From a virus (taxonomy: Duplodnaviria; Heunggongvirae; Uroviricota; Caudoviricetes), in the IMG/VR virus record IMGVR_UViG_3300031787_000010, positions 73,429 through 137,428 of that record: DNA of 64,000 bases; one strand, given 5' to 3'. Below, in pieces: positions 5,610 through 24,657 of this stretch. The notes beneath the pieces are model-generated. The model was not told the DNA's origin. It did not search any database and saw nothing but the letters and a program-made list of their open reading frames with translations. The translations under genes and the position numbers were made by a program. Numbering within the stretch: position 1 is the stretch's first letter; each line of letters begins with the position of its first letter.

Positions 5610-5638
5610 AATCTACTCACATCATTCACATTTGTCAA
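5610..5638 (-). promoter_or_regulatory. candidate promoter TTGACA-N17-TAGATT inside the 3' end of the upstream gene, driving thyX
   Basis: Minus-strand TTGACA at 5638-5633 and TAGATT at 5615-5610. The leader carries ACGGAG 8 nt before the thyX ATG. Confidence 0.3.
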
Positions 5639-6461
5639 TCACTCGTTGAATTATATCCCGTGTATCATATTCAGGCGTATATCCAAGTGATTGCAATTTA
5701 CTATTGTCCATATACATCGATTTTACTTGTACGATTTTATGAAAGTTGGGTGCATCTACATATGTAATCTCGCTCGTTGAACCTAGCATTCTACGTGCGT
5801 CCATAACAATATCATATAGTGAAACAGCTTTACCGTTTCCTATATTGTAGATCTCATTCACTTCACCCCTTGTCAATACCATATCAATAGCTCGGACACA
5901 ATCATCTAAATCAATAATGTCTCTATACAACTGTCCACCATCATATAAAGGTACTGGTTCATTTTTGTGTAAAGACTTTATCATATGTACGATTGCATTT
6001 TTCTTTGTAGATGCTTTTCTATCTGACAGTCCTACTACGTTTGCCAATCGAAGTATACGATATTTTATCCCAAACGTTTGACAATACGATATGAGCATCT
6101 GTTCCGCTGTACGTTTCGTGATTGAATAGAACCCCTTCGGATTACAATAAGACGTTTCTTTTGCCGGTAAATCCGTGTCTCCGTATACGAACCACGACGA
6201 TATGAAATTGAATACGGTATTTTCTCTATCTTGTATGTTTTGAAGTACGGTGATCAACGTAGTTAGATTCGTGTTTATATCAATAAACGGGTCATAGAAT
6301 ACATTGTAGTTATCTACCGTAGAAATGAAATACAGAATGTTGTTTGTTTTCGGTGAATAATCGTTTCGTTGGTTTACAACACAATTCGGATATAGTTCAA
6401 CATAACGTGAACCGACAAATCCCTTCCCACCAAAAACGTTTATTGATTCCATTTCGCACAC
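5622..6461 (-). CDS. NAD(P)-dependent sugar epimerase/reductase (SDR family; abequose-synthase-like)
   Basis: N-terminal GGKGFVGS Rossmann motif, about 280 aa, located in the sugar-nucleotide cluster. Confidence 0.65.
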   Translation of the reverse strand: MCEMESINVFGGKGFVGSRYVELYPNCVVNQRNDYSPKTNNILYFISTVDNYNVFYDPFIDINTNLTTLITVLQNIQDRENTVFNFISSWFVYGDTDLPAKETSYCNPKGFYSITKRTAEQMLISYCQTFGIKYRILRLANVVGLSDRKASTKKNAIVHMIKSLHKNEPVPLYDGGQLYRDIIDLDDCVRAIDMVLTRGEVNEIYNIGNGKAVSLYDIVMDARRMLGSTSEITYVDAPNFHKIVQVKSMYMDNSKLQSLGYTPEYDTRDIIQRVIDKCE

Positions 6462-7741
6462 ACTTCATCAATATAGTTCAATACTTCTTCCGTATAATGT
6501 GGTGGACATCCCAAAAAGAACACGTTACTCAATGCTAGATTGGCAAGGGGATACTCCTTGTAATTACCCAAGTGTGAATACCCTGGGTGTAGTAAGATGT
6601 TACCAGCGAAATAGTTTCGAGTCTGGATTTTGTTATCCTCGAAGTGCTGTTGGAGTTTCGTTTTCATTTGCGAATCTTCAACATAAATCGGAACACCAAA
6701 CCACGAAGTTTCGGCGAGTTCACTTTCTTCAACCACACGGACGCCCTTGATGTGTTTCATAATACTTTCGTGAATACGTTGCTTACTGTTTCGACGCCCA
6801 CTATGAATCGTATCAAACTTTTCTAACTGTGCCATACCGATTGCGCCTTGAAGGTCAAGCGGCTTGAGATTGTATCCCATCTGTGTGAATACATACTTGT
6901 GGTCCACGACGCCATTATATCCTTCGAGCCACGTATCAAATCGTTTCCCACACGTTCCGCATGCAAGAAGGTTTGCTGCTCCGACACAATAACAATCACG
7001 GCCCCACCACGAAATACTTCGAGCAAGGTCAATCAATTTTTCATCATTAGAACACACCATACCACCTTCACCTGTCGTAATATGATGTGCTGGATAGAAC
7101 GAACACGACCACGCGTAGTAGTATTCGTTGATAAGTTTATCGTTCCAATGTGAACCCAGACTATCGCAATTGTCCCCGAGTAGAATCAGGTTGTGTGATT
7201 CACAGATACCTTTCAGTATATCCATATTAGGCGGATTACCGAGTACGGGAGAAACGAAAATGGCTTTGGTGCGTGGAGTAATCTTTTTGACAATCTCCAT
7301 CAAATCAAAGTTTAGCGTATCTATTTCGATATCGACGAATACCGGCTTCAATCCATTCTGAACGAGCGGGGCTATCGTCGTAGGGAATCCAACGGGTGAC
7401 ACAATAACCTCATCACCATCTTCCCAACCTAAATACTTCTTGACTGCAGCAACTAGTACAAGATTTGCCGAAGAGCCAGAATTTACCATATGGGCAAACC
7501 TTACCTTGAATAATTCAGCAAATCGTACTTGAAACTTGTTGACGTATTCACCAGACACTAACCACTTCCCCGTAAGGAATGCAGTCAATGCCATACGGAT
7601 TTCATTGTCATCAAAGAATGGACCAGAATAATAGACGGGTGATTTACCCGGCACAAAGTCCTTACTATTATACGCCCACTTCGGTTGGACTGCTTTTGTC
7701 AATTCATCTATAAGCAGCTCTATACGTTTATCGTCTGTCAT
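6440..7741 (-). CDS. DegT/DnrJ/EryC1-family PLP/PMP-dependent sugar 3-dehydratase/aminotransferase (RfbH/E1- or ColD-like)
   Basis: 433 aa with the DegT fold pattern. A Cys cluster CYCVGAANLLACGTCGKRF is reminiscent of the [2Fe-2S] site of CDP-4-keto-6-deoxyglucose 3-dehydrase E1. Confidence 0.8.
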   Translation of the reverse strand: MTDDKRIELLIDELTKAVQPKWAYNSKDFVPGKSPVYYSGPFFDDNEIRMALTAFLTGKWLVSGEYVNKFQVRFAELFKVRFAHMVNSGSSANLVLVAAVKKYLGWEDGDEVIVSPVGFPTTIAPLVQNGLKPVFVDIEIDTLNFDLMEIVKKITPRTKAIFVSPVLGNPPNMDILKGICESHNLILLGDNCDSLGSHWNDKLINEYYYAWSCSFYPAHHITTGEGGMVCSNDEKLIDLARSISWWGRDCYCVGAANLLACGTCGKRFDTWLEGYNGVVDHKYVFTQMGYNLKPLDLQGAIGMAQLEKFDTIHSGRRNSKQRIHESIMKHIKGVRVVEESELAETSWFGVPIYVEDSQMKTKLQQHFEDNKIQTRNYFAGNILLHPGYSHLGNYKEYPLANLALSNVFFLGCPPHYTEEVLNYIDEVCAKWNQ

Positions 7742-8640
7742 AATTCCTCTCTATCTAAAACCGTTTTGAGATACTTCCCATATTCTGTCTTACTGCATAG
7801 TTCAATAAATGGCGTGACACCTTCTCTTGTTACCCATTTCTTTGTAATTGCAATTTCGTGCGGACTACCAACAAGATAGTTTTGATGTTTCTGTACATTG
7901 TGAATGAAATTTGCTGCTTCTAACATTGCTTCAGCATTTCCCGTATCAAACCACACCATACCTCTCGACAATTGTACAGCTTCCATCTCTCCTCTATCAA
8001 GATAATACTTGTTTAAATCGGTGATTTCAAGTTCACCACGTTTGGACGGTGACAACATCGTAGTATAAAGATACACGCTTGTGGGATAAAAGTAAAGGCC
8101 GGTAACTGCTAAATTACTTTTTGGTTTTGTAGGCTTTTCTTCAATCGATATAACTTTATTATTCATTACTTCAGCAACACCAAACAACTCTGGATCTCTG
8201 ACAGGGTATAGGAACACTTCTGCTTTCTTTCTGATTCCTTCTTTATTCACCTCATCTAACAATCCCCGCAATCCAGAACCATAAAAAATATTATCTCCAA
8301 GAATTAATGCATGTGCATCATATTCGAAAATTTCATTTTGAATAGTATTGTGTACGATATTGAATGCATCAGCTATACCGAGAGGAACTGGTTGTACTAG
8401 ACATCGTACAGAAATTCCTAACTCTTCTTTTGCGTTAGCAAACAACTTATTGAAACTATCTAATTCGCCTGGAGAGCTGATGATTATAAAATCTCGAACA
8501 CCTGCCAACATCAATGTCGAGAGTGGATAATAGATAAGGGGTTTATCGTATACCGGAAGTAGTTGTTTGGTGGCAACTAACGTAGAAGGATACAAACGTG
8601 TTGACTTTCCACCAGCTAATATTATACCGAGAGTTCGCAT
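7738..8640 (-). CDS. rmlA: glucose-1-phosphate thymidylyltransferase
   Basis: MRTLGIILAGGKSTRLYPSTLVATKQLLPVYDKPLIYYPLSTLMLAG is a near-canonical RmlA N-terminus. The start was moved to the Met at 8640; the ORF track's 8673 start would overlap rmlB. Confidence 0.85.
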   Translation of the reverse strand: MRTLGIILAGGKSTRLYPSTLVATKQLLPVYDKPLIYYPLSTLMLAGVRDFIIISSPGELDSFNKLFANAKEELGISVRCLVQPVPLGIADAFNIVHNTIQNEIFEYDAHALILGDNIFYGSGLRGLLDEVNKEGIRKKAEVFLYPVRDPELFGVAEVMNNKVISIEEKPTKPKSNLAVTGLYFYPTSVYLYTTMLSPSKRGELEITDLNKYYLDRGEMEAVQLSRGMVWFDTGNAEAMLEAANFIHNVQKHQNYLVGSPHEIAITKKWVTREGVTPFIELCSKTEYGKYLKTVLDREEL

Positions 8641-9596
8641 TGTTCCATCCAAGTAACATTTGAAAGATACCATTCGACAGTTTTATATAACCCTTCCTCG
8701 AATGACACGGAAGGTTTCCATCCTAATTCTTTTTCTATCTTTTCTATGGACATCGCATATCTAAAGTCATGTCCCTTTCTATCCTCGACATATTCAATCA
8801 AGGATTCATCTCTGTTCATTATATGAAGAATCAATTTGACTACATCGATGTTTGCCCGTTCAGAATTGCCACCAATGTTGTATACCGAACCAATCTTCCC
8901 ATCCAACAATACACGATATAGAGCTCTACAATGATCATCAACGTGTAACCAATCTCGTATATTCATTCCCGTGCCATACACCGGAATACGTTCATTCTTC
9001 ATTGCCTTTCGAATCACAGTCGGTATCAGCTTCTCTGGATATTGTCGTGGTCCATAGTTGTTGGTGCAATGGGTGATGATAGCTGGTAGATTGAATGTCT
9101 TGTTGAATGCTCTGACTAAATGATCCCCACCTGCTTTCGTAGCGGAGTATGGACTATTCGGTGCGTATGGTGTGGATTCTGTAAACGGAGGGTCATCAGT
9201 TGATAAATGTCCGTACACTTCATCGGTTGAGATATGAATGAATCTAAACCGTGCTCCAGTTTCGTTATATCGTCGAAGAGCACAGAGGAAGTTATAAGTG
9301 CCCATCAGATTCGTTTTGACAAACGCATCGGGGTCAGCGATGGAACGATCAACGTGTGTTTCAGCAGCAAAGTTGATGATGAAATCTGGTTTATGGTTCA
9401 ATATAATCGTATCGATGATAACTGGGTCACCGATGTCTGCTTGATAGAAGAGATACCGTGAACTCTTTGGATGAGAGGTCACGCCTGCGTATGTCAACGC
9501 ATCGACATTGATAATATAATAATCAGTATGTGTCAGTAGAAACTCTATGAAGTTGCTACCGATAAACCCACAACCACCCGTAACTAGTATTTTCAT
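8622..9596 (-). CDS. rmlB: dTDP-glucose 4,6-dehydratase
   Basis: MKILVTGGCGFIGSNF...VDALTYAG and a YxxxK catalytic motif, the classic RmlB pattern. Confidence 0.9.
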   Translation of the reverse strand: MKILVTGGCGFIGSNFIEFLLTHTDYYIINVDALTYAGVTSHPKSSRYLFYQADIGDPVIIDTIILNHKPDFIINFAAETHVDRSIADPDAFVKTNLMGTYNFLCALRRYNETGARFRFIHISTDEVYGHLSTDDPPFTESTPYAPNSPYSATKAGGDHLVRAFNKTFNLPAIITHCTNNYGPRQYPEKLIPTVIRKAMKNERIPVYGTGMNIRDWLHVDDHCRALYRVLLDGKIGSVYNIGGNSERANIDVVKLILHIMNRDESLIEYVEDRKGHDFRYAMSIEKIEKELGWKPSVSFEEGLYKTVEWYLSNVTWMEQCELSV

Positions 9597-10450
9597 AAAT
9601 TATTGATATACTCCCGTAACCTATCGTTTGGTACCCAACCTAGTCTATCTACTGCATCATTATTCTCTCGACGCGTTTCCTTATAGTTTCCTTGTTGGTC
9701 TGGAAGTCTTATGAATCCGACTTTGAATTTATCGCGGAACATATGATACACTTCATTTAGTGAATAGTTATTTCCCGTTCCAAGTTCCCACGCATCGTGG
9801 TGACGTTCATTTGATTGTCCGATTCGAATCAATCCATCTACTATATCGTCAATATGTGTGAAATCTCTACGTTGTTCCCCGTCTCCGACAATAGTAATTA
9901 ATTCACCTCGTTCTACTTGTCCTCTCCATTTACCAATAACTGCCGCCCAATCACCTTCTGTAATCTCACGCGGTCCATACACATTGTAGAATCTGGTTAT
10001 TTCTATTTCCATATTATAGATTGTACGATACGTCTTACACAACTCCTCACCCATATGTTTAGATAAAGCATATGGAGATATAAACGGGTTGTGCCATCTG
10101 GACGAAGAGCCGGCATATATCACCTTTATATTTCTAGAACGTGCCCATTCTAATACGGAAAGAGTACCATTTGTATTTACTTCGACAGTTTCAGTTGGAT
10201 TTTCAAACGATGGTTGTATTCTAGATAATGCCGCTAGATGATACACTACGTCTATATCATATGGTTGTAACGCCGTAAATAAATCATCCCGTACATCAAA
10301 CTGTAGGTATGTCGCACCGTCGTGTTCATTTTCAACCGTACCAACTTCGTAATTGTCTACTGATATTACTTGACATCCTTCGTTCAATAATCTACGAATT
10401 AAGTTAGTACCGACAAAACCAACACCGCCCGTAACCAATACACTTTTCAT
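9593..10450 (-). CDS. NAD-dependent epimerase/dehydratase family protein (possible 4-ketoreductase)
   Basis: VTGGVGFVGTNLIRRL Rossmann motif and YALSK (YxxxK). Confidence 0.7.
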   Translation of the reverse strand: MKSVLVTGGVGFVGTNLIRRLLNEGCQVISVDNYEVGTVENEHDGATYLQFDVRDDLFTALQPYDIDVVYHLAALSRIQPSFENPTETVEVNTNGTLSVLEWARSRNIKVIYAGSSSRWHNPFISPYALSKHMGEELCKTYRTIYNMEIEITRFYNVYGPREITEGDWAAVIGKWRGQVERGELITIVGDGEQRRDFTHIDDIVDGLIRIGQSNERHHDAWELGTGNNYSLNEVYHMFRDKFKVGFIRLPDQQGNYKETRRENNDAVDRLGWVPNDRLREYINNL

Positions 10451-10459
10451 AACTACTCC

Positions 10460-13080: not shown

Positions 13081-13938
13081 TTATGTTGATATTGGCCGAA
13101 CGCCACAAATCATTCCGTATTCATCAAACATCGGCAATCCGCCCCATTTCTTGATGAATAGTCCAGCGTTTCTATTTTCAAATGCTAATAATCTATTAGA
13201 ACGAGTCATTACATCATTTGGAAAATTACTATTAAAACTTCTACTAGCAAAATGATACACCATAGACGAACCCGTGAGTACAAATTTAAACCCTTTATGT
13301 CGCATTGTCAAGAACAAATCGTGGTCCTCAAACGCAGCAGGATTATACTGTGGATCGTTTCCACCTGATTCATCCCAATCTGACTTGCGGATCATAAATG
13401 AACACCCCCATGCCAAAGGAATTTCATACTCTTCGTTTTCTTTGGTAAACTCGGTTGCCCATTCATCAAATACGTCCTGTCGGAAATCGTGGTGAAACGC
13501 ACCAAATTCATTATTAGGAGTTATGATAACTCCAGGTCGAGATGATGTACCAACAAAGACGTTTGGTTCTACACGATGTGATGTTACAACCAATTTTTCA
13601 TTTGGATACTTATCAAATAGTTTCAAGAGTGCTAAATCTTGATCAGGAGCAACGTACATATCGGCGTGTAAGAAATGTATAAATTCAGTTTCTACAACCT
13701 TTGCCATTTCATTCATACCATAACCGATACCACAGGTGTCATCTGGACAATCGATAATGATAGGCTGGATGTTCAGTCTTTCCTTATTCTCTTCTAGCCA
13801 TTCGTTTGTACCATCCGTACAATTTTCTGCTGCTACAATAATCTTCGTATCTTTGAAGTGATGATTCTTCTTGATAGATTCAATCGCCAACTTTAGATAT
13901 GGTAGATTGTTATTTGATCCTATGCATGTTGTAATCAT
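13081..13938 (-). CDS. glycosyltransferase family 2-like
   Basis: GT-A-like N-terminus (KIIVAAENCTDGT) with DxD-like acidic motifs. Confidence 0.55.
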   Translation of the reverse strand: MITTCIGSNNNLPYLKLAIESIKKNHHFKDTKIIVAAENCTDGTNEWLEENKERLNIQPIIIDCPDDTCGIGYGMNEMAKVVETEFIHFLHADMYVAPDQDLALLKLFDKYPNEKLVVTSHRVEPNVFVGTSSRPGVIITPNNEFGAFHHDFRQDVFDEWATEFTKENEEYEIPLAWGCSFMIRKSDWDESGGNDPQYNPAAFEDHDLFLTMRHKGFKFVLTGSSMVYHFASRSFNSNFPNDVMTRSNRLLAFENRNAGLFIKKWGGLPMFDEYGMICGVRPIST

Positions 13939-13941: not shown

Positions 13942-14805
13942 CTAATTCCTTTGTAAATCCATTACAAACTTGGTGAATATTTCTAACGACTCTTGTGCGT
14001 ATTTCTTGTACACATCATCATGTCGAGTTGACGATGTGTTTGTTCTTTTATTAGGATGACCGTAGTTGTGTCCTTTTATTCTTGTACTCACAAGATATTG
14101 TGGCCATCCTTTTGATTCAAAGAATCTCTCGGCACTAGTATCATCATATATGAAATGTAAATTTTCTGGTATGAACTTTTCGTTTATACCGCCCGACAAT
14201 GCGAGTAACGAACCATCAAACTTACAAACTGGAAGCTGTATGATTTCTATATCATATTGATTGTTGAACGTATTAAGTTGCTCTAGATTGATGATATCAG
14301 AAGAATTGAGAGGATACGGGGCAGTGTATATCTGTTCCCGTGTTCTCTGATATTTCACAATGTCTTTGTGCTCCACAACATCCCACGTGCTATCCCACAT
14401 CTTCCTAGAAGATAGTGTAAGAGCGTGAGGATTCTTGAAGTCAACTTCCGATAGTATGTAAAAATAATCTTCAGGCATCAAACAGTCTGATTCACCCCAC
14501 ACAGTATACTTTGCGTTAGGGTCATATACATCTCTACGCCAATCAGTTGCATTATAGAACCCATCATCGTTTGTTTTATATATCAGTTCCGCATCTTTTA
14601 ATAGATTGTGATGTAGAAACATATTAAACATTTCTTCTGGTTCGCCCATTTCGGGAGATTCTATAAACGTTTGTGCGTTTAAACAAAACTGAAGCTTAAC
14701 CGGCAACTTGCTATGTTTTAGTGCACGTTCTACAGAAGTAAGCGTTTCATATATCATACGAGACTCATACCACATAATATGCATTTGAAACAATATGTGT
14801 GACAT
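13942..14805 (-). CDS. hypothetical protein in the glycan cluster
   Basis: 287 aa, no clear motif. Confidence 0.4.
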   Translation of the reverse strand: MSHILFQMHIMWYESRMIYETLTSVERALKHSKLPVKLQFCLNAQTFIESPEMGEPEEMFNMFLHHNLLKDAELIYKTNDDGFYNATDWRRDVYDPNAKYTVWGESDCLMPEDYFYILSEVDFKNPHALTLSSRKMWDSTWDVVEHKDIVKYQRTREQIYTAPYPLNSSDIINLEQLNTFNNQYDIEIIQLPVCKFDGSLLALSGGINEKFIPENLHFIYDDTSAERFFESKGWPQYLVSTRIKGHNYGHPNKRTNTSSTRHDDVYKKYAQESLEIFTKFVMDLQRN

Positions 14806-16242: not shown

Positions 16243-16555
16243 TCACCTCATGCCATTTACCAACAGGACAATACGTTTTCTTGAACATAGATTTCGTATT
16301 CATAAAGCACCCACACTGCGAACAACGTTCGGACCTATTATCAAAAAACTCACAACTATGACATTCTTTGAGTCGGTCATTACGAATATCTTCAGTTACA
16401 AATGCACCTTCTCCAGCCATAACGCCACCGACTATATCTTTAGCACTACTTAAAAATCCTTTTAATTGATTATAAGCTGATGGCATGTTCTTGGGTGGTT
16501 CGACTTCATCATTACACTCCGGTTCTGCACATACGCCAAACGGGTCTTTAGTCAT
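16232..16555 (-). CDS. small Cys-rich (zinc-binding) protein
   Basis: CHSCEFF...CSQCGCF...CPVGKW cysteine pattern. Confidence 0.35.
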   Translation of the reverse strand: MTKDPFGVCAEPECNDEVEPPKNMPSAYNQLKGFLSSAKDIVGGVMAGEGAFVTEDIRNDRLKECHSCEFFDNRSERCSQCGCFMNTKSMFKKTYCPVGKWHEVIDG

Positions 16556-16558: not shown

Positions 16559-16981
16559 TTATTCCTCATACATTTTGTACTTTTTAATTTCTTCCTTCTT
16601 CTCTTCCTTCTTTACTTTCGGTGTTGGTTTTGGTTTTACCGGCGGTAGTGTGAGATACACCTTACGAATGTTGGAAATTTTATCTATAGTATATGTACGA
16701 TACGGTCGATCCTTGACGTATCTACTTTCTTTATACTCTGCTAAAATCTTCTTCTCATCATTATTGTCGCCAATCAATCGCAACAATTGTTGAAGAGTTT
16801 GTGTAGCAATGTTCCGTAATCTTAACGCATGTAACTTTCCATTCCATTCAGGATTTAAAACAATTGCGTGTTTCTGTTTACCATCGTAAATAAATTCTAC
16901 AACAGAACCGACTTCCACTTCTGAAATCGATGCTACAGGTTCTACTATATACGTTTCTGGATTGGAATCTATATATCTCAT
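16559..16981 (-). CDS. hypothetical protein with a lysine/glutamate-rich C-terminal tail
   Basis: 140 aa ORF. Confidence 0.4.
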   Translation of the reverse strand: MRYIDSNPETYIVEPVASISEVEVGSVVEFIYDGKQKHAIVLNPEWNGKLHALRLRNIATQTLQQLLRLIGDNNDEKKILAEYKESRYVKDRPYRTYTIDKISNIRKVYLTLPPVKPKPTPKVKKEEKKEEIKKYKMYEE

Positions 16982-18303
16982 GCATCACTCTTCAAAGACG
17001 GTAATTCAACTTTCTTTAATTTAGGTAACACTACAGCCACTTGTTTCGGGAATTCCGGTACATACTTATCCAACAATTCAAACGTTTTCTTTTGTATATT
17101 CTCATACGAAAATTGCTTTCTATTTTTAACAGCCAAATCGTATGCTCTATCTTTAAATTGTTTGTAATCCATAAATACCGCTGCTATTCCGTTAGCAGTT
17201 TGATTCGGGTCTGGTGCAAACCAACTTGCTTCCTTCATAATTACGTTTTCCCATGCCGCAGTTGGATGAACATTCTTCAACTCACCACCAATTAACAAAG
17301 CGGTTTCCTTATCAAGAAAATCCAAATGTCCGCTCCAACCAGAAGCAATAACAGGCTTCCCACTCACAGATGCTTCTAGTAAAGGTCTACCAAAACCTTC
17401 ACCCTTTGTCAAACTGATATGTGCCTTTACCTTCGGGTGATTGTATATAGTATTCATTTCTTTTTCTGTTAACTCTCCGTGGAGCAGATAGATGTTTGGT
17501 AATGACTGTCCATGCTCCAACGTAACCGTAGAACGTATCTGTTCTATACGATTCAATATTTCTTCTCGGTCTAGAATAGAGAATCCCGCATTACTTGTCT
17601 TAAGAATAAGTGCTGGTGGATTTTTTGTCTGTATCTGTTTAAACGTTTCTAAAAACATTTTAACAAGGAACCCAACATTCTTTCGATCCTCCCCAAGAGC
17701 ACCTTGTAACCAATGTCCCACAAATAGATAACAGAATGATTCTGGGATAGCGTCTAGTGCTTTTACCATAGATGGTTCAGTCGGAGCGTTCTTTCCAAAT
17801 ATTGTCGTATCAATACAATTATGCAGAACTTCGATAGGTTTAGTCAGCTCTAACAATCCTTCCGTTCCGTCTGGATTCTTAAATCCATACTTACTGTTTT
17901 CAAATATACGCTTCGAGTGTTCAGAGATTGTAAACACCACATCCATCTCATTACATCCCTTTACCCACGGTGGAGAGACTGCGGTTGTTTCTATACCTGC
18001 AGTGATACCGATATTATACTTTCCAATACGTTGAAATTCGTTCGGTACGGAAACTACAACGAATAATTCTGGTTGCTTGTTTACTGTACTAGTTAGAATT
18101 CTATCCAAAATCATTTTATCTTTTGGATTGTTTTCATCCAACGCGTTCATTGGAGTATCACCCCACGGTACACTATGAACGCGTACATCGTACTTATCAT
18201 ATTCTATTAAGTGACGAATGATATCACGGCTCATATCACCGTATCCTGAACGTGTGGCACATGGTGCTCGAACAATACACAACGGTTTAATTTCTTGTGA
18301 CAT
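16978..18303 (-). CDS. glycosyltransferase family 4 (GT-B)
   Basis: GEGFGRPLLEASVSGKPVIAS E-x7-E motif. Confidence 0.7.
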   Translation of the reverse strand: MSQEIKPLCIVRAPCATRSGYGDMSRDIIRHLIEYDKYDVRVHSVPWGDTPMNALDENNPKDKMILDRILTSTVNKQPELFVVVSVPNEFQRIGKYNIGITAGIETTAVSPPWVKGCNEMDVVFTISEHSKRIFENSKYGFKNPDGTEGLLELTKPIEVLHNCIDTTIFGKNAPTEPSMVKALDAIPESFCYLFVGHWLQGALGEDRKNVGFLVKMFLETFKQIQTKNPPALILKTSNAGFSILDREEILNRIEQIRSTVTLEHGQSLPNIYLLHGELTEKEMNTIYNHPKVKAHISLTKGEGFGRPLLEASVSGKPVIASGWSGHLDFLDKETALLIGGELKNVHPTAAWENVIMKEASWFAPDPNQTANGIAAVFMDYKQFKDRAYDLAVKNRKQFSYENIQKKTFELLDKYVPEFPKQVAVVLPKLKKVELPSLKSDA

Positions 18304-18306: not shown

Positions 18307-19269
18307 TTACTCCGTTAACATTGAATTGACAAGGGAATTTAAATCATGCTTTGGCTCCCATCCTAAAACTTGACGGGCTTTGTTTGAATCACCTTTTAAG
18401 TGATGAACATCTTCCGGCCGCATGAACTTTTGATCAACTTCTACCCACTCACGCCAATCTCTATCACCAAACGCAGCAGTTAAAAAGTCTTTAATGCTAT
18501 AAGTCATACCCGTTGCGAGTACATAATCATCTGGTGTATTATGCTGTAACATCAACCACATGCCATGCACATAATCTTCGGCGTGTCCCCAATCACGACG
18601 AGCATCCAAATTACCCAACTTTAATTTCTTCTTGGTGTAATGGTTCCAATTCAATTCTTTCATTGCCTTTACGAAATTAGTAATCTTTTTGGTAACGAAT
18701 AGATCTCCACGCATTGGTGATTCGTGATTAAACAGGATACCAGCACATGCAAACATTCCATATTGTACTCTATACACGTTTACCATTTGGTGAGCATATA
18801 ACTTTGCTACACCATACGGACTTACTGGACGCATCGTAGTAGTTTCACGTTGAAACCCGTCGAGGTCAACGCTGTTACCGTACATTTCAGACGTTGATGC
18901 TTGATAGAATCGTGCGTATGGAGTAATACGACGAACTGCATCTAACAACTGTGCAACTCCGATAGCATTTGCTTGCGCAGTGTATACTGGAGAGTCGAAA
19001 CTTACTTTAACGTGAGATTGTGCCGCCAGATTATAAATTTCCGTTGGCTTTACTCTATGAACTATTGCTTCCATAGAAGATGCATCAGTCAAATCACCGT
19101 AATCAAAACTTACCATCGATTCGAATTCTTTGACTGTACCCAATTCATTCTCTACTCGGTTGTGTCTACGAATGACACCGAACACTTCATAGTCTTTTTC
19201 TAAAAGTAACTTGGTAAGATAGTGACCATCTTGGCCAGTAATACCAGTAATCAATGCTCTACGCTTCAT
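18307..19269 (-). CDS. gmd: GDP-mannose 4,6-dehydratase
   Basis: MKRRALITGITGQDGHYLTKLLLEKDYEVFGVIRR closely matches the Gmd N-terminus. Start set at the Met at 19269, which gives a TAATG overlap with the upstream GT4 gene. Confidence 0.85.
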   Translation of the reverse strand: MKRRALITGITGQDGHYLTKLLLEKDYEVFGVIRRHNRVENELGTVKEFESMVSFDYGDLTDASSMEAIVHRVKPTEIYNLAAQSHVKVSFDSPVYTAQANAIGVAQLLDAVRRITPYARFYQASTSEMYGNSVDLDGFQRETTTMRPVSPYGVAKLYAHQMVNVYRVQYGMFACAGILFNHESPMRGDLFVTKKITNFVKAMKELNWNHYTKKKLKLGNLDARRDWGHAEDYVHGMWLMLQHNTPDDYVLATGMTYSIKDFLTAAFGDRDWREWVEVDQKFMRPEDVHHLKGDSNKARQVLGWEPKHDLNSLVNSMLTE

Positions 19270-20675
19270 TATGCCCTCACCAAAGTATAACGTTCCCGTG
19301 GAGTCCAATTCTCCAATAGGGTATTAATGTGTTCAATAAATAGCTCTCCCATCTTTTCAGCGGTAAACATTCCCGGCCCCATTGCATATTCACGACCAAG
19401 CATTCCACGGCGTTTCCGTTCTTCACGACCCATCTTATATAACTCCAACAATCTATCTCCAGCCTCTTCCCACGAACAACGGTCGTCAAAAATATATGGA
19501 GTCAACGGAGAACCTTGTAGTGACCGTGAGGTTGGGAAGCACGGGAATGCCCATTCACCATGTCTATTATAGCGACCATCGTGGTTACTACCCCATTCGT
19601 AGGTGAAATGCTTTTCTGGATCGAGATAGTTTCCTTCTTCGTCCATAAATCCACATTGGTCTTGTAATCCACCTGTGACGTTTACAACGATAGGTGTACC
19701 CGCTAACATACTTTCACACGTTCCCAATCCAAATCCTTCATTACTAGCGAGATTGATAGTAACGTCAGCAATATTATACATCGCATTGAGGACCAACGCA
19801 TCAACTCTTGTGTTAGAGAATACTGCTTTGATATCGGGTGTAACATCACGAATAACTGCTGGGAGGTCCGTACCGTTTTCGTCAACGGGTTGTGTATGTA
19901 ATACGATACGACACTTTTCTTGTTCTTCTTTTGTCAACTGTTTTAAGAAATGGTTATACGCAAGTAGTACATCCGAAGTCATCTTACGACGAAGATTGCG
20001 TGCATTATAGAACACTACGAAATCTACATCCTCACCACGGAACAATTCATTTTTTGTATTGGTCAATAATTCTTGACCCACGGTGTCATCGTTCTGAATT
20101 GGATAGTATTTCTTTTTATGATCAATTCCATGTGGAAGATATGTCAACGACCACGGCTTTCTCGGTTCTTTACGAGATACGTGTTTAACAATATTGTATG
20201 TTTGCTTACTGATACAGAAGATTCCGTCATCTGATCTATAAAAGTTTTCGTTGTAATATGGATATGGGAGATCATCCCAAATAGCATAAAACATCATCGG
20301 AATCTTCTGACGAATTTCGTGCTCAATTTGATAAAGCCAAATCCAATAACGAGGATCGGTAAAATGAAGAATGGCATCTGGCTTTTCCGTATCCATAAGA
20401 TACCGAATTAACATACTGTTGCCATATCCATTCTGTGCATAAATCTTTACAGACGCGTCTTGAATACCAGTTTGTTCTGATACTTGTTCGCTTATGTCTG
20501 CAACTTTTCCTTCTTCTGGATGGTTGATAGCCGCACCAACCTGCACCCAATTAAAAATTCCCGCAGTCTGTTCTACGATTTCCCTTGACATTACTCCGAT
20601 ACCAGAATGAACTCGTAAGTCATCCGAGAGTAAAAGTATTTTCTTTCTTTGTTCTTTAGGTAACCATTGCTTCAT
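19269..20675 (-). CDS. glycosyltransferase family 4 (GT-B)
   Basis: NEGFGLGTCESMLAGTPIVV E-x7-E motif. Confidence 0.65.
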   Translation of the reverse strand: MKQWLPKEQRKKILLLSDDLRVHSGIGVMSREIVEQTAGIFNWVQVGAAINHPEEGKVADISEQVSEQTGIQDASVKIYAQNGYGNSMLIRYLMDTEKPDAILHFTDPRYWIWLYQIEHEIRQKIPMMFYAIWDDLPYPYYNENFYRSDDGIFCISKQTYNIVKHVSRKEPRKPWSLTYLPHGIDHKKKYYPIQNDDTVGQELLTNTKNELFRGEDVDFVVFYNARNLRRKMTSDVLLAYNHFLKQLTKEEQEKCRIVLHTQPVDENGTDLPAVIRDVTPDIKAVFSNTRVDALVLNAMYNIADVTINLASNEGFGLGTCESMLAGTPIVVNVTGGLQDQCGFMDEEGNYLDPEKHFTYEWGSNHDGRYNRHGEWAFPCFPTSRSLQGSPLTPYIFDDRCSWEEAGDRLLELYKMGREERKRRGMLGREYAMGPGMFTAEKMGELFIEHINTLLENWTPRERYTLVRA

Positions 20676-20690
20676 GTATATAATCCTCTA

Positions 20691-21193: not shown

Positions 21194-21219
21194 TAAGTAT
21201 CATTCAAAGTCACCAAACA

Positions 21220-22287
21220 TCAAATTCCATTTGGAGTTTCTGACCAAACAATAGTAAATCCACTTGTACACGTTTCTGTTAATATACCATTAACAAAATT
21301 TCTAAAGTTATCGAAGCTGGAAAACTTCTCCAGTTTCCCGTCAAGAATGATACCAAAATGTCCTACCTGTTTCAATACATCTGCTTTGTTGATAATGACT
21401 TGTGTAACGCCATTGATATTAGCAGCCATTATCACTCGGTCAAGATTCATCCAATTTACTTTACGTGGGCGGCCTGTAGTTGCTCCGAACTCAGCACCGA
21501 CGCGTTGAATTTCTTGGAAGATAGGGTCAGCTTCGTTTGTATAGTCAGTTCTGTTTCCGACATATGTTTCATATGCTTTCATCGTACCAATTACTTTTCG
21601 AATACGACGAGGTGGTATACCATTTAGAACAGATGACCCAACTGTACAATGTGAACTGGTGACGTATGGATAATCACCCCAATCAATATCAAGATGAAAT
21701 CCTTGCGCACCCTCACACAACACACGATACTTGTGAAAATCTTCGTGGAGTAATTTATAAACATCGATAACTTGAAATAATTCAGATGGTCTAACCTGTA
21801 AATCTCCCATACGAACACCACTACGACCGTACTTGTCACGATACGCAGGACCGATACCTTGGCGTGTTGTACCAATCTTTACATCAGAACCATCCTCTTC
21901 AAGATGTTTATCTAACACTAGGTGAGCGCGTTTATCAACGAATATCAATCCATCTGTTTTAAATCCGGCATCGTTTAGTTCTTTAATTTCTGATTCTAGC
22001 TTGGGTATATTTACAACACAACCAGGCCCAATCACACTTTTTTTACCGTAGAGCACACCAACAGGCACCTGATGCGTCACAACCTTTTGTCCGTTGTGGT
22101 ACACCGTGTGCCCAGCGTTTGCTCCACCATTGTATCGTAGCACTATATTATAATCATCTGATGATGCTAATGCATGTGCTACTTTCCCTTTACCAGTATC
22201 TCCGTACTGAAGGTCTACGATTACATCTGCGTATACTAATCCCATATCACCCTCTACTGTATCTATCTCGTACTCGAACCAAATCAT
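21220..22287 (-). CDS. adenylosuccinate-synthetase (PurA) family protein, short form; candidate PurZ
   Basis: P-loop YGDTGKGK (PurA has GDEGKGK); GGANAGH (PurA has GGHNAGH); GTTRQGIGP, CEGAQG, YPYVTSS, GATTGRPRK, NKADVL. 355 aa versus about 430 for PurA, with the C-terminus truncated. Confidence 0.8.
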   Translation of the reverse strand: MIWFEYEIDTVEGDMGLVYADVIVDLQYGDTGKGKVAHALASSDDYNIVLRYNGGANAGHTVYHNGQKVVTHQVPVGVLYGKKSVIGPGCVVNIPKLESEIKELNDAGFKTDGLIFVDKRAHLVLDKHLEEDGSDVKIGTTRQGIGPAYRDKYGRSGVRMGDLQVRPSELFQVIDVYKLLHEDFHKYRVLCEGAQGFHLDIDWGDYPYVTSSHCTVGSSVLNGIPPRRIRKVIGTMKAYETYVGNRTDYTNEADPIFQEIQRVGAEFGATTGRPRKVNWMNLDRVIMAANINGVTQVIINKADVLKQVGHFGIILDGKLEKFSSFDNFRNFVNGILTETCTSGFTIVWSETPNGI

Positions 22288-22606
22288 CCAGATGGTTCGT
22301 TGATGCTTCTAAAATTTCCATATCCGTAATTGCTTCTACGTTATGAATTTGTGTGGGAGGAATATGCACCGCATCACCTTCCGATACAATCATTTCCTTG
22401 GTGACCACAGGACGTGCATCTTCCAATTTATAGAAACGAATATATCCCTTACCCGACAATACATACATCGTTTCATCCTTGTGGTGATGATACTGAATAC
22501 TCAATGCTTCCCCACAATTGACCTTCAAAATCTTTCCCACATAATGTTCTGTATGGGCCCAAATTGTTTCGGAACCCCACGGCTTTTCTACAAATTTAAC
22601 TTGCAT
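22247..22606 (-). CDS. cupin-domain protein (type II phosphomannose-isomerase-like)
   Basis: WGSETIWAHTEHYVGKILKV..G..LSIQYHHHKDETMYVLSG cupin motifs. Confidence 0.6.
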   Translation of the reverse strand: MQVKFVEKPWGSETIWAHTEHYVGKILKVNCGEALSIQYHHHKDETMYVLSGKGYIRFYKLEDARPVVTKEMIVSEGDAVHIPPTQIHNVEAITDMEILEASTNHLDDLVRVRDRYSRG

Positions 22607-22897: not shown

Positions 22898-23282
22898 TTA
22901 TAAGTTCTTCATTAATATCTGTATATTTGTTTAATAGTTCCATTTCTTTTCTGACAAACTTTTTATCGTGGTAGTCGAATCCCATGCCGTGTACTAGTTC
23001 GTGAATCAATGTTAGAATATCCCTTTGGGTTTTTACTAACTCAATTGTTTCACCATCACACCAACTATATCTTACACCACCGTGAGGAGTGCCAATGCCA
23101 AATCGGATTTGTGGCATGTCGGATTTGATGTTTTCTTTCTTCCAAATTTTCTTCGCCAGACTCAACAAAAACTTATACGGACGTTGCTTGGTGATATTAC
23201 TATATCGCCGGTCACAATACATGTCACCTTCTAACTTATAAAGACGGCGAGTATCTATCATTCTACGATATACTAATTTCAT
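22866..23282 (-). CDS. small HExxH zinc-metallopeptidase-like protein
   Basis: HELVHGMGFDYH motif. Confidence 0.45.
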   Translation of the reverse strand: MKLVYRRMIDTRRLYKLEGDMYCDRRYSNITKQRPYKFLLSLAKKIWKKENIKSDMPQIRFGIGTPHGGVRYSWCDGETIELVKTQRDILTLIHELVHGMGFDYHDKKFVRKEMELLNKYTDINEELIIEAFESYDYH

Positions 23283-23292
23283 AAATAACCTC

Positions 23293-24657
23293 TTAATTAT
23301 TTTCCATAAAGAACTTCAAATCTTCCGGCGTTCCCAATCCCCACATCACAGGGACATCGAATGTCTTGATCTTCTTTCCAGCACCAATCGCTTCATTGAA
23401 TACAGGACACACATAAAACTCGTTATTAACCCGAATATTCTTTTCAATCATTTGTTCTGCGAACCGAACATAATCGCTTCCATGCTTCCAGTAATAGATA
23501 CCCACGGTCGCAATATCGGAGATAGGATTCTTCTCTGCAACTTCGGTGACAAATCCATGTTCGTTAATCCTAGCAAACGACCACTTTGGATGGGTTGATT
23601 TGAATGTCACAATCCCACCATCAAGGTTCTGTTCAACCATCTTATACATAAACTCATTGCTATCCCATTCAACATACTGGTCAGAATTAGCCATCAACAA
23701 TGGTGCGTCGGTATTAATATGTTCTCTTGCCAATAGTGTAGTACATGCCGCACCCTCGGTAATTCCATCGACCTCCACAATCTTACAGTTAGGCGTGATA
23801 AGATTCAACAGCGTATCAAGGTTATACTTGGTACGATGTTCTTTCTGTACGACATAAATGAAAGTTGCCTCAACGTTCAAGTTTTCCGCAACAACCTGAA
23901 TCATTGGCTTTCCCCGTACATCAATCAATGGTTTTGGGAAAGTATATCCTGCTTGCTGGAAGCGACTTCCCGCACCAGCCATCGGTATCAATACGTTCAT
24001 CTTATCACCTTGCCACTTTGGCATCACCATTATACTTGTTTGATTTAATTTTTCGTATATCTTTTCTTCCGTCAAATCTTTTGGATTATTGACACGTAGT
24101 ACATTAGCTCGACTACGTGCAGCTGCCAACAATCCCGGCGGACTATCTTCGACAATTAATGTTTCTTCCGGCAAAACCCCCATCGTACTCATTGCTTTCC
24201 AGTACATTTCAGGATGGGGTTTACTGTTCTTTACATCTTCATTTGAAATAATCAAGTCCATATACTCAATTAATCCCATCTTAGCCAAGACTGTCAATAC
24301 AGTCCGGCGGATGGAATTAGAACAACATGCAATCTTATATTTTTCACTGATCAATCTTTTGAACAGCAGTTGCAATCGTGTATCAATCGTAAGACCACCT
24401 AACGCTTCTAACGTTTTACTCTGTTTACATTTCCAAATTGGTTCGTGGAATCCCTCTGGCAATCCTTTATTTGCTGTAAGTATTTCCAACTTTTCATTGG
24501 TTTTACGACCATCATATACCGACAGATGTTCTTCCCATCCAATCACCCACTTGGGATTATTTGTGACTTCAAGTATTGCGTTGTTGAGGGATTGATAATG
24601 AATCTCTTTGGCCTCTACCAACACCCCGTCCAAATCAAATATAACTAACTTAATCAC
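23293..24657 (-). CDS. bifunctional HAD-family phosphatase/phosphomutase + sugar-phosphate nucleotidyltransferase
   Basis: N-terminal HAD motif I MIKLVIFDLDGVLVE. C-terminal NTP-transferase motif MNVLIPMAGAGSRFQQAGYTFPKPLI. Confidence 0.75.
   Translation of the reverse strand: MIKLVIFDLDGVLVEAKEIHYQSLNNAILEVTNNPKWVIGWEEHLSVYDGRKTNEKLEILTANKGLPEGFHEPIWKCKQSKTLEALGGLTIDTRLQLLFKRLISEKYKIACCSNSIRRTVLTVLAKMGLIEYMDLIISNEDVKNSKPHPEMYWKAMSTMGVLPEETLIVEDSPPGLLAAARSRANVLRVNNPKDLTEEKIYEKLNQTSIMVMPKWQGDKMNVLIPMAGAGSRFQQAGYTFPKPLIDVRGKPMIQVVAENLNVEATFIYVVQKEHRTKYNLDTLLNLITPNCKIVEVDGITEGAACTTLLAREHINTDAPLLMANSDQYVEWDSNEFMYKMVEQNLDGGIVTFKSTHPKWSFARINEHGFVTEVAEKNPISDIATVGIYYWKHGSDYVRFAEQMIEKNIRVNNEFYVCPVFNEAIGAGKKIKTFDVPVMWGLGTPEDLKFFMENN

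Follow-up and report, generated by a model that had tools for sequence, protein, structure and literature searches.

Aquatic phages were already known to carry sugar-building islands; the named published examples are those of P-SSM2, S-SCSM1, S-SCSM2R, RN05-S/S-B05/S-B43 and HTVC008M-like phages ("LPS" or cell-wall glycan islands). These cyanomyophage and pelagimyophage islands combine NDP-sugar enzymes (Gmd, SDRs, DegT/E1-like proteins and a small PMI cupin) with many GT-A and GT-B glycosyltransferases (GTs) in hypervariable regions, and the locus described here has the same composition. Virus-encoded protein glycosylation is represented by the chloroviruses (PBCV-1 and NY-2A), the fibrils of mimivirus, and the capsid and tail tube of mycobacteriophages, the last of which involves only a few GTs.

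The window (the whole stretch of 64,000 nucleotides analyzed here) derived from a freshwater T4-like phage of approximately 190 kb, which is related to Microcystis phage Mel-JY01 and the Flavobacterium "immuto" phages. The identity of PolB was 45% to Mel-JY01 and 31-33% to cyanomyophage PolB. In its gene content (PolB, a gp32-like protein, UvsX/RecA, DnaB, clamp loader, RNR and ligase), the window matched the module for replication and nucleotide metabolism of T4-like myoviruses, which bore out the phage origin proposed previously. The glycan island (5622-24657, minus strand) contained approximately 16 intact genes for rare activated sugars and glycan assembly, and was located at the end of the replication module, in contrast to the tail-fibre "host recognition cluster" of cyanomyophages. 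All of the gene classes named in the preliminary description were present at their positions on the minus strand, including at least two sugar-nucleotide routes (RmlA/RmlB and Gmd) and, where five or more transferases had been proposed, six (four GT-A and two GT4-type GT-B). These genes were not pseudogenes: independent metagenome assemblies of several samples (JGI and ENA) contained the island again, with approximately 100% nucleotide identity and the same gene order. The toolkit, previously called very large, was not exceptional, since the islands of RN05-S-type cyanophages, S-SCSM2R (13 GTs, 22 genes) and pelagimyophages are comparable or larger.

The region is a predicted glycan-assembly island with two layers: a lineage-core GT4 pair and a strain-variable cassette. 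In this phage, four GT-A transferases belong to the cassette, as do a route to dTDP-4-keto-6-deoxyglucose (RmlA and RmlB), which an E1-type Fe-S 3-dehydrase extends together with an SDR, and a route to GDP-4-keto-6-deoxymannose through Gmd, to which a PMI-like cupin is linked. Non-glycan genes were also found inside the span: a 644-aa protein (10715-12649), a DUF1599-like protein (12694-13074), a PurA-like gene (21220-22287) that had been overlooked previously, and several small ORFs.

The dTDP-sugar block

The genes of this part were on the minus strand. RmlB, a dTDP-glucose 4,6-dehydratase (8622..9596), scored 459 bits with TIGR01181, above the cut-off of 365, and 94 bits with the CDP-glucose dehydratase model. 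The RmlA-type glucose-1-phosphate thymidylyltransferase (7738..8673) scored 322 bits with TIGR01207 (cut-off, 361) and only 26 bits with the CDP model TIGR02623. The ends of the RmlA gene and the adjoining gene (6440..7741) overlapped; the latter encoded an E1/RfbH/DdhC-type PMP-dependent [2Fe-2S] NDP-4-keto-6-deoxyhexose 3-dehydrase (368 bits with NF011936, below the cut-off of 423). The extended short-chain dehydrogenase SDR1 (5622..6461; Pfam Epimerase, 5e-29; GxxGxxG and YxxxK in the translation) shared 22 nt with the end of the E1 gene, had no specific solved homologue in a structure-database search, and was missing from all 33 related loci. SDR2 (9593..10450; Epimerase, 2e-49) was a 4-epimerase/UXS/reductase-like NDP-sugar enzyme, whose best solved matches were UDP-Glc 4-epimerase, UDP-GlcA decarboxylase and WbgU (about 1e-29 to 1e-32). 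Among the relatives examined, no RmlA/RmlB plus E1 dTDP block was seen.

The block resembled the DdhA-D/AscA-D systems of Salmonella and Yersinia for CDP-3,6-dideoxyhexose in the His residue replacing the PLP lysine, the Fe-S cysteines, and the SDR after E1, which could be a 4-reductase; SDR1 is accordingly proposed as the 4-ketoreductase that would finish the dideoxyhexose. When aligned to Yersinia E1 (3BCX), the equivalents of His220, C193, C251 and C253 were conserved (the CxC...C cluster). The differences from these systems were the dTDP-type RmlA/RmlB neighbours in place of CDP-type DdhA/DdhB, and the lack of an encoded E3 reductase (DdhD/AscD); because of this lack, the electrons for E1 may be supplied by host ferredoxin or flavodoxin systems. 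The protein also differed from DdhC/RfbH in that the score was under the NCBIfam equivalog cut-off and the last cysteine had an 11-residue spacing instead of 7 (CX11 vs CX7). E1-like genes with 59-60% identity were found in Synechococcus phages and a 642-kb uncultured phage, and those of RN05-S and S-H68 were 60% identical.

The preliminary description had compared the combination of Gmd and the 3-dehydrase to colitose-type biosynthesis. This reading was not sustained: the enzyme was of the E1 type (Fe-S cysteines; 250 bits against E1 vs 178 bits against ColD) and was located in the RmlA/RmlB/SDR block, so that a dTDP-linked (or CDP-like) 3,6-dideoxyhexose is more parsimonious than a Gmd-to-ColD route to colitose. 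The products of the island would be a dTDP-3,6-dideoxyhexose and a GDP-6-deoxyhexose, with the nucleotide specificities of E1 and both SDRs being putative.

The GT4 pair and the variable cassette

Two GT4-type GT-B genes formed the conserved core, both on the minus strand and both with the EX7E motif. GT-B A (19269..20675) was most similar by sequence, among solved structures, to the chlorovirus glycosyltransferase B736L; this similarity was low (17% identity). GT-B B (16978..18303) matched phrog_2170 (1.8e-21) and scored 25.5 bits with Glycos_transf_1, just under the gathering cut-off. In 30 of 33 related loci, GT-B B and GT-B A were neighbours; the three remaining contigs were truncated. The two genes were separated either by 8-394 nt (<70 nt in 19 of 21 cases) or by a single Gmd gene. 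The pair was always located just downstream of a PD-(D/E)XK nuclease gene, and its identity to the homologues in Mel-JY01 and immuto phages (43-48%) was near the PolB value. Related loci with the pair included phages of Flavobacterium and Microcystis. In deposited phage records, matches were confined to the immuto phages, Mel-JY01, one uncultured phage, RM378 and, weakly, S-CBS4; neither cyanomyophages nor pelagimyophages were represented among these records. A search of 185,579 species genomes recovered the family solely from short MAG contigs whose synteny was that of phages. The two core transferases are thus kept lineage-wide, and everything downstream is a hypervariable sugar cassette. 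Relatives swapped in other rare-sugar routes (NeuB, PseB-like plus DegT genes, and C- and O-methyltransferases), and when the island ORFs of 13 relatives (146 in total) were assigned to Pfam, the 25 families listed comprised no classes other than GTs, NDP-sugar enzymes, methyltransferases and NeuB.

In this phage, Gmd (GDP-mannose 4,6-dehydratase; 18307..19308, minus strand; Pfam, 381 bits; TIGR01472, 377 bits with a cut-off of 415) was inserted between the two core genes, and the one-gene gap (~1 kb) in nine relatives coincided with a Gmd match. A 119-aa PMI-type (PMI-C) cupin (22247..22606, minus strand; PF01050, 1.2e-10, 42 bits, above the gathering cut-off of 23.6) was present in eight of the nine related loci carrying Gmd, and this co-occurrence suggests that the two are functionally tied. 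In a further protein (23293..24657, minus strand; HAD_2, 2e-25; NTP_transferase, 1e-9), a HAD (beta-phosphoglucomutase-like) domain was fused to a sugar-1-phosphate nucleotidyltransferase; this fusion matched beta-PGM (1e-14) and the NDP-sugar pyrophosphorylase 4EVW (8.5e-20) in the PDB. The earlier proposal that the cupin and the fusion together supply GDP-mannose was not supported for the fusion, which, unlike the cupin, did not go with Gmd and occurred in four related loci with neither Gmd nor the cupin.

The four GT-A genes were contiguous on the minus strand. The first was a GT2 enzyme (13081..13938; Glycos_transf_2, 2e-11). For the second (13942..14805), a GT-A fold was recognized by structure prediction only, and the protein is a putative glycosyltransferase of a new family with no Pfam model. 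The third (14807..15490) is a probable GT-A glycosyltransferase, assigned from sequence by an invariant E91-D92-D93, with weak profile matches to TarS (0.023), SpsA (0.31) and Pfam GT2 (0.016). These three genes travelled together in loci L022-L026. The fourth (15487..16242) was GT2-like but below Pfam thresholds (DUF707, 8e-6; GT2, 4e-4), with a "VVVLDNGSTD" signature. The Cys-rich small DUF6171 protein that followed (16232..16555, minus strand; PF19668, 1.8e-6; phrog_13558, 9e-18) was a conserved neighbour of GT-B B in closer relatives, with 31-57% matches in 13 related loci.

Acceptor of the sugars

None of the island enzymes had predicted membrane-spanning segments. Furthermore, no TM-rich protein was found in the island or the examined related loci, and no flippase (Wzx), polymerase (Wzy), ligase, ABC transporter/exporter or priming phosphoglycosyltransferase in the window or those loci, contrary to the earlier suggestion that the phage could build a complete glycan; priming and export genes are likewise absent among the listed genes of the RN05-S region. 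The genes amount to a complete toolkit only if glycosylation proceeds stepwise in the cytoplasm.

We tentatively consider that the acceptor is a phage-made molecule, most likely at least one virion structural protein, and lean towards virion proteins over host envelope glycans. The GT4 pair would lay down the conserved inner sugar(s), probably from a GDP-sugar, and the GT-A enzymes would then add strain-specific outer sugars singly in the cytoplasm, such that released particles would be coated with a glycan that varies between strains, in the manner of chloroviruses, mimiviruses and mycobacteriophages. Several features argue for virion proteins: the soluble, export-free gene set, the restriction of the GT4 family to contigs with phage synteny, the match of GT-B A to chlorovirus B736L, and the exchange of rare-sugar routes among relatives. 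In addition, the core-plus-variable layout is the expected product of an exposed, diversifying glycan, and the conservation of the GT4 pair across phages with cultured hosts of different phyla suggests an acceptor carried along by the phage itself. Glycosylation of virions by phage glycosyltransferases has a precedent in mycobacteriophages (PMC12619734). We found no literature report of glycosylated cyanophage virions. The position of the island in the replication/nucleotide module, away from structural genes, is an observation against virion proteins. Late-promoter and sigma-70 scans were at chance level.

Remodelling of the host envelope, the traditional interpretation of such auxiliary genes, is only slightly less probable. 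The soluble phage GTs and rare NDP-sugars would act at the cytoplasmic face on host undecaprenyl-phosphate-linked intermediates of O-antigen, capsule or, in Bacteroidota, the general protein O-glycan, with export via the priming enzyme, flippase and either ligase or OTase of the host, and the altered surface would block superinfection or stop progeny from adsorbing to infected cells and debris. RmlAB, DdhC-type E1, Gmd, GT2 and GT4 are families of O-antigen clusters, host O-chain modification is the published (putative) reading of the pelagimyophage and cyanomyophage islands, and the structural neighbours of GT4 included the Und-PP-acting PglA, WlaC and WbnH and the LPS-core enzyme WaaG. The LFG-type O-glycosylation locus of Bacteroidota is similarly laid out: two conserved GTs plus variable GTs, assembly on Und-P by cytoplasmic GTs from cytoplasmic NDP-sugars, and a glycan with a constant core and variable outer part. 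However, the host locus has a Wzx flippase and needs Und-P and an OTase, and at least one cultured relative of this phage infects a cyanobacterium. Near the island, a run of three ORFs (25328-26941) was enriched 7-8-fold in the Bacteroidota sequon D(S/T)(A/I/L/V/M/T), and signal peptides were visible in two of them, which fits a Bacteroidota host and periplasmic glycosylation, but these ORFs were not conserved in relatives. The absence of a priming transferase, flippase, polymerase and ligase from the examined related loci also weighs against an envelope target, as does the GT4 pair being an old phage core, with multi-phylum hosts and no cellular genome context, unlike typical host-derived auxiliary genes.

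DNA, the third target named in the preliminary description, appears very improbable. Under this reading, the GTs would add sugars to hydroxylated bases in the phage genome and so protect it from restriction. DNA-glycosylating phages can encode NDP-sugar synthesis and several GTs; the island also lies within the replication/nucleotide module, near a nuclease, the DUF1599-like "nucleotide modification associated" protein and ThyX. However, no ThyA-type dCMP/dUMP hydroxymethylase, 5hoC synthase or TET/5mYOX was found among the scanned window ORFs, in a window that holds most of the nucleotide-metabolism genes and in which the thymidylate synthase was an ordinary ThyX, accompanied by dCMP deaminase and dUTPase. 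The DNA-modification genes of the window were Mom and an N6/N4 methylase; such genes varied between relatives, with Mom in this phage and 7-deazaguanine DpdA in immuto, against a constant GT4 pair, and DUF1599 was unlinked to GTs in relatives. Moreover, the published cases consulted are glycosyl derivatives of 5-hydroxymethyl- or 5-hydroxy-cytosine, for example cytidine with one to three arabinosyl groups, and none of them is made by six GTs with dideoxy sugars.

Another cytoplasmic acceptor, namely a glycolipid or small-molecule glycoside, or a role of the sugar enzymes mainly in redirecting host nucleotide-sugar pools, is unlikely. Relatives of GT4 include PimA, BshA, MshA, and sucrose-phosphate and trehalose synthases, but a metabolite poorly explains six transferases and strain-varying rare-sugar routes, and the hypervariability of the cassette suggests an exposed, recognized structure.

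Sugar-related genes outside the island

The three scattered sugar genes reported previously were all confirmed by Pfam domains on the minus strand. A GT2 gene (46453..47217; Glycos_transf_2, 2.2e-22) adjoined PolB, and a fusion (51783..54353) combined an SDR (Epimerase, 1e-23) with a TylC3-like NDP-hexose C-methyltransferase (Methyltransf_14, 2e-49; Methyltransf_13, 1e-10). The UDP-Glc/GDP-Man dehydrogenase-like (Ugd-like) protein (38823..39695; UDPG_MGDP_dh_N, 9e-24; central domain, 5e-22) had no C-terminal domain, and this short form was also present in one related locus (L038; 43% identity, 99% coverage).

Sugar-nucleotide routes encoded by the island

Every gene class that the preliminary description had named was found in the island (5622-24657, minus strand). 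Profile scores assigned the dTDP block (5622-10450, minus strand) to RmlA (7738-8673), RmlB (8622-9596), an E1/RfbH-like protein (6440-7741), and two extended SDRs: SDR1 (5622-6461) and SDR2 (9593-10450). RmlB exceeded its equivalog cut-off (459 against 365 bits), and RmlA gave 322 bits with TIGR01207, under the cut-off of 361 but far above other models, including the CDP model (26 bits). Enzymes that make dTDP-glucose and convert it to dTDP-4-keto-6-deoxyglucose are therefore encoded. Among the models run, there was no dTDP_sugar_isom match (RmlC) in the island ORFs, and the RmlD equivalog reached a maximum of 64 bits, solely on RmlB itself. Since the RmlC 3,5-epimerase and the RmlD 4-reductase were not found, the route branches at dTDP-4-keto-6-deoxyglucose.

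The E1 gene lies between those for RmlA and SDR1 and overlaps each of them at its ends. The Fe-S-type Cys cluster previously noticed in this protein was confirmed: aligning it with Yersinia E1 (3BCX; 250 bits) showed that equivalents of C193, C251, and C253 are kept and that the fourth Cys is present after a four-residue insertion (CX11 versus CX7 spacing). The four-Cys [2Fe-2S] motif of Yersinia E1, which we take to be C193...C251-x-C253-x7-C261, agreed in numbering with this alignment. The active site, SFYPAHHIT, was identical to that of 3BCX, with His (His220 in Yersinia E1) in place of the PLP-binding Lys of the DegT/AAT fold; the structure of the H220K mutant (3BB8) served as the marker for the position of the PLP-lysine. 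ColD matched the dehydrase with only 178 bits, compared with the 250 bits of 3BCX, and ColD is not known to have the four-Cys Fe-S cluster. The score with the NF011936 equivalog was 368 bits (cut-off of 423 not reached), and by sequence comparison the protein is assigned to a divergent E1 subfamily common to aquatic phages.

Neither a CDP-type enzyme (DdhA/DdhB for CDP-glucose supply) nor a flavodoxin/ferredoxin-reductase-type protein (E3, DdhD/AscD) was detected in the scanned ORFs of the window, with those shorter than ~110 aa covered in part. Since no E3 reductase is encoded, electrons for E1 would be supplied by ferredoxin or flavodoxin systems of the host; the E1 homologue SpnQ runs on general cellular reductases. 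The E1-type dehydrase would remove the 3-OH group from the dTDP intermediate, and SDR1 would then reduce C4 to give a dTDP-3,6-dideoxyhexose. An E1-type Fe-S 3-dehydrase in a dTDP context suggests an undescribed route to dTDP-3,6-dideoxyhexose. Comparisons with solved homologues gave no single specific reaction for SDR1 or SDR2: SDR2 resembled 4-epimerases, UXS, GDP-mannose 3,5-epimerase, and Rmd-type reductases, without one standing out.

Gmd (18307-19308) scored 381 bits in Pfam, and the enzyme converting GDP-mannose to GDP-4-keto-6-deoxymannose is thus encoded. Chlorovirus GMD is itself able to reduce its own product to GDP-D-rhamnose. A colitose route, from Gmd to a ColD-like dehydratase, had been proposed; Gmd was present, but the dehydrase was of the E1 type and located within the dTDP block, making this reading less likely. 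The Fcl model (ColC-like) gave just 40-65 bits on the island SDRs. The cupin and the HAD-nucleotidyltransferase fusion had also been thought to supply GDP-mannose together. The former (22247-22606; 119 aa) was above the Pfam PMI-C threshold and was found with Gmd in eight of the nine Gmd-bearing loci (co-occurrence among 33 related loci), which supports a link between the cupin and Gmd. On the other hand, the fusion (23293-24657; 454 aa), with a β-phosphoglucomutase-like HAD domain and a sugar-1-phosphate nucleotidyltransferase domain, occurred in four related loci lacking both Gmd and the cupin, leaving its function as a GDP-mannose pyrophosphorylase unsupported. Regarding the outlying sugar genes, the Ugd-like protein (at 38823) was missing the C-terminal domain, a short form that was kept in a marine relative, and the gene at 51783 was an SDR-C-methyltransferase fusion.

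The GT4 pair and the variable cassette

The island contains four GT-A and two GT-B glycosyltransferases (GTs); a seventh, of the GT2 type (46453-47217), was located outside it, near the family-B DNA polymerase (PolB) gene. Pfam on its own supported 13081-13938 (GT2) and 19269-20675 (GT1/GT4; GT-B 'A'), and gave sub-threshold matches for 15487-16242 and 16978-18303 (GT-B 'B'). The product of 14807-15490, with an invariant EDD and weak matches to TarS, SpsA, and GT2, is a probable GT-A. A profile search of the 13942-14805 family against PDB sequences yielded no match, and no relation to the 14807-15490 family was found by profile-profile comparison. The fold of the 13942-14805 product was resolved by structure prediction only, which gives a fold assignment to a large unnamed GT-A family with 262 homologues and no model in Pfam. 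GT-B 'A' and 'B', the GT4 pair, had the GT-B fold, with EX7E as a motif of their C-terminal domains; GT4 is a family of retaining enzymes in the CAZy classification. At least 8000 homologues of GT-B 'A' were found in metagenomes.

Loci with homologues of GT-B 'A' and loci with homologues of the 13942-14805 GT-A were gathered from IMG/VR, deposited phages, and species genomes (33 distinct loci). GT-B 'B' adjoined GT-B 'A' in 30 of these, and the remaining three contigs stopped at GT-B 'A'. The spacing between the two was 8-394 nt (<70 nt in 19 of 21), and exactly one gene, Gmd, was inserted between them in nine related loci, as in the window. A PD-(D/E)XK nuclease gene preceded the pair in 25 of the 33 loci, and this arrangement holds in the Microcystis phage Mel-JY01 (43-48% identity), the Flavobacterium immuto phages (48%), and marine MAG contigs. 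The latter are evidently mis-binned phage DNA, since the clamp loader and nuclease were in the same order, and no cellular genome context was found for the pair in the species genomes searched. The divergence of the GT4 pair was similar to that of PolB, suggesting a core gene of a lineage with cultured members in different host phyla.

Gene content downstream of the pair varied between loci. A Pfam census (146 ORFs, 13 relatives) identified GT2 (16), DegT-type proteins (6), PseB/CapD-like dehydratases (4), epimerases (4), nucleotidyltransferases (4), GT7-like transferases (3-4), and NeuB (3), together with FkbM and C-methyltransferases. The RmlA/RmlB/SDR1 block was found in none of the related loci compared, and the E1-like gene in only three relatives (41-42% identity). 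The GT-A triplet of 13942-14805, 14807-15490, and 13081-13938 co-traveled in five distant loci.

An ORF of ~133-172 aa was located directly downstream of GT-B 'B' in every locus (16559-16981, 140 aa, followed by 16232-16555, in the window; minus strand). The ORF of close relatives at this site matched the 140-aa protein weakly (E ~1e-6) and was followed by a Cys-rich DUF6171 protein, while distant relatives, including the immuto phages, had a CxxC...CxxC zinc-ribbon protein there instead. A possible role for these ORFs is as accessory factors to the GT4 pair.

Islands of sugar genes that match or exceed this one in size are already known: Synechococcus phage RN05-S has ~20 sugar genes (including an E1-like gene 60% identical to that of the island), S-SCSM2R has 22 cell-wall-related genes, 13 of them for GTs, and pelagimyophages have many LPS-type genes. 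New here are, in the Mel-JY01/immuto-like lineage, a hypervariable cassette anchored by a conserved GT4 pair; the predicted fold of the large unnamed GT-A family; and the dTDP context of the E1-type dehydrase.

Possible acceptors of the glycan

DNA, initially listed as one of three possible targets, is unlikely to be the acceptor. Known DNA-glycosylating phages need a ThyA-type hydroxymethylase, a 5hoC synthase, or a TET-type oxygenase. No ThyA-type hydroxymethylase, 5hoC synthase, or C5-MTase with TET/5mYOX was found in the window, where the nucleotide-metabolism genes lie, and its thymidylate/pyrimidine genes were an ordinary ThyX, dCMP deaminase, and dUTPase. The DNA-modification genes consisted of an N6/N4 methylase and a Mom-family protein (32248-33066, minus strand; PF25680, 1.3e-44), the latter of which was 48-71% identical in many relatives and points to a DNA modification of the adenine N6-carbamoylmethyl type in this lineage. 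The immuto phages had a 7-deazaguanine system in place of Mom/methylase and retained the GT4 pair. The absence of a hydroxylated-base enzyme from the window, the ordinary ThyX, and the maintenance of the GT4 pair despite different DNA-modification genes all argue against DNA.

In the literature, such islands have been read as remodeling the host envelope, a view compatible with soluble transferases that act on Und-P-linked intermediates. The hallmark of the 'LPS'-type hypervariable islands of aquatic T4-like phages, namely clustered NDP-sugar enzymes and multiple GTs that vary between relatives, was found here. Und-PP-acting GT4 enzymes were among the close structural neighbors of the GT4 pair, and the Bacteroidota O-glycan locus had a strikingly similar layout, with two conserved and several variable GTs. 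However, priming or export genes were not found in the related loci examined, and the GT4 pair has long been a core gene of these phages, kept across host phyla and without a cellular genome context among the genomes searched. The initiating phosphoglycosyltransferase, flippase/exporter, and polymerase/ligase that mark a Wzx/Wzy- or ABC-transporter-dependent O-antigen/capsule cluster were not found in the island or these loci. On the coding strand of the island and of the related loci examined, a hydrophobicity scan revealed no protein with multiple membrane passes, and no flippase, polymerase, ABC, or priming-transferase family was among the 25 Pfam families, each with more than one member, listed in the census. 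The host envelope is, on balance, only slightly less favored as the acceptor than virion proteins.

The lack of a priming/export gene in the related loci examined, and the long retention of the GT4 pair by phages of different host phyla, with no cellular genome context found, suggest that the acceptor is carried along by the phage. On these points, a slight preference was given to virion proteins, which we tentatively propose as the acceptor. The phage GTs would glycosylate these proteins stepwise in the cytoplasm. Virion glycosylation by a virus would call for soluble GTs and a sugar supply, both encoded by the virus; the island has both, and precedents for virion protein glycosylation are known in chloroviruses, mimiviruses, and mycobacteriophages. 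Literature searches found no report of glycosylated cyanophage virions or capsids, and nothing usable on Mel-JY01 and the immuto phages.

A broader and more speculative possibility is that a widespread aquatic T4-like lineage, including Flavobacterium and Microcystis phages, has its own cytoplasmic protein glycosylation: the GT4 pair would prime virion proteins, and the fast-exchanged rare-sugar cassette would write a strain-specific outer glycan, with 3,6-dideoxyhexose as the rare sugar here and nonulosonic acids in other members. Particles would then come in 'serotypes', the phage counterpart of bacterial O-antigens. Glycan genes make up ~8% of large aquatic phage genomes. The present locus is tractable: the freshwater phage is abundant and repeatedly assembled, the core-plus-variable architecture is clear, and the GT4 pair is also present in two cultured relatives, the immuto phages (host Flavobacterium sp. 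LMO8) and Mel-JY01 (host Microcystis elabens). If the virion is the acceptor, particles would carry diversifying glycan coats, which would matter for adsorption, grazing, the stability of particles, and how 'LPS' auxiliary genes in viromes are interpreted; if it is the host envelope, the locus would offer a concrete example of how the surface is reprogrammed in lytic infection. A demonstration of virion glycosylation would substantially increase the interest of the system.

The phage and other genes in and around the island

Nearly all genes of the window were on the minus strand. They included replication genes (PolB, gp32-like SSB, RecA/UvsX, DnaB-type helicase, 5'-3' exonuclease, clamp-loader subunits, and ligase) and those for class II RNR, thioredoxin, dUTPase, dCMP deaminase, ThyX, and CobS/CobT-like proteins; by gene content, the window is the part of a large T4-like myovirus genome devoted to replication and nucleotide metabolism. 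The GC content was 48-49% in the first 4 kb (1-4500; CobS/CobT-like AAA and VWA genes) and 37-42% elsewhere. When the whole span was compared by megablast with 50,697 phage records, there were no matches, so none of these deposited genomes is close. The closest PolB was that of Mel-JY01 (45% identity), compared with 31-33% for cyanomyophages. The same phage, with ~100% nucleotide identity and identical gene order, was present in several JGI and ENA metagenome assemblies, the JGI sample numbers of which presumably correspond to Lake Erie bloom metagenomes, and one island protein was also found on a contig of 191,683 bp. In two older assemblies (L031:5596-6451; L032:2786-3819, 4364-5713, 6679-7780), the Gmd, PurA-like, or GT-B 'B' ORFs were split in two, and GT-B 'A' was shortened to 449 aa. 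All four genes were intact in the window and most assemblies. The split ORFs are probably assembly errors; alternatively, they may reflect population-level inactivation.

Scans for regulatory sites gave no information on timing or operons: T4-type late promoters (TATAAATA) had 8 matches versus 5.9 expected, sigma-70-like sites numbered 64 versus 68 expected, and terminator-like sites, mainly on the non-coding strand, numbered 18 versus 11.5 expected.

The preliminary description did not mention a short PurA-like adenylosuccinate synthetase (21220-22287, minus strand; 355 aa; ~60% identity in four close relatives). Its assignment as PurZ (2-aminoadenine) was rejected (PurZ model, 154 bits; cut-off, 300); since it scored 213 bits to bacterial PurA and 88 to PurZ, it is probably a purine auxiliary gene and not a 2-aminoadenine enzyme. 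Between the sugar-nucleotide and GT genes was a lysine-rich ORF of 644 aa without a family (10715-12649, minus strand). It was rejected as a polymerase or carrier: there was no family match, and homologues were located in the replication modules of other phages (L027-L029). An otherwise ~100%-identical strain had an unrelated lysine-rich protein at this position (L035:18025-18843), indicating that the slot is variable at the strain level. A DUF1599-like protein was also rejected as a link to DNA glycosylation, scoring 21.6 bits (below the gathering cut-off) and located near the clamp loader, not GTs, in Mel-JY01, L019, and L021. Several small island ORFs had no family assignment.

The SpoU/TrmH-type RNA 2'-O-methyltransferase gene (24654-25352, minus strand) was among the most conserved of its neighborhood (76-88% identity in relatives), with PolB-level genes being far more diverged. 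A hydrophobic protein of 96 aa with one to three predicted TM segments (22607-22897, minus strand; weak DUF5698, E 0.08) was 65-85% identical across relatives, and it is part of the conserved backbone, not of the variable sugar cassette. Three small adjacent ORFs (25328-25654, 25645-26262, and 26279-26941, minus strand), flanked by the genes for the SpoU methylase and the PD-(D/E)XK nuclease, were not conserved in relatives. Two had visible N-terminal signal peptides, one of these with a lipobox-like 'LYAC'. The Bacteroidota O-glycosylation sequon D(S/T)(A/I/L/V/M/T) was denser in the three than anywhere else in the window: 2.3-2.8 per 100 aa, with a window mean of 0.34 (P ~0.002-0.003 for the excess in the two larger ORFs by composition-preserving shuffles). 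These sequon-rich ORFs hint at a Bacteroidota host and exported phage glycoproteins.

A homologue of DruA from the Druantia defense system (36417-37610, minus strand; PF14236, 1.3e-31; 72% identity in L016) could be a decoy/anti-defense gene or a captured defense gene. The ORF at 28658-30025 (plus strand), ~4 kb from the island, matched the 'virion structural protein' family phrog_1645 (1.9e-91), with an L005 homologue of 74% identity, and was the sole long one of the five plus-strand ORFs in the 82-ORF set.
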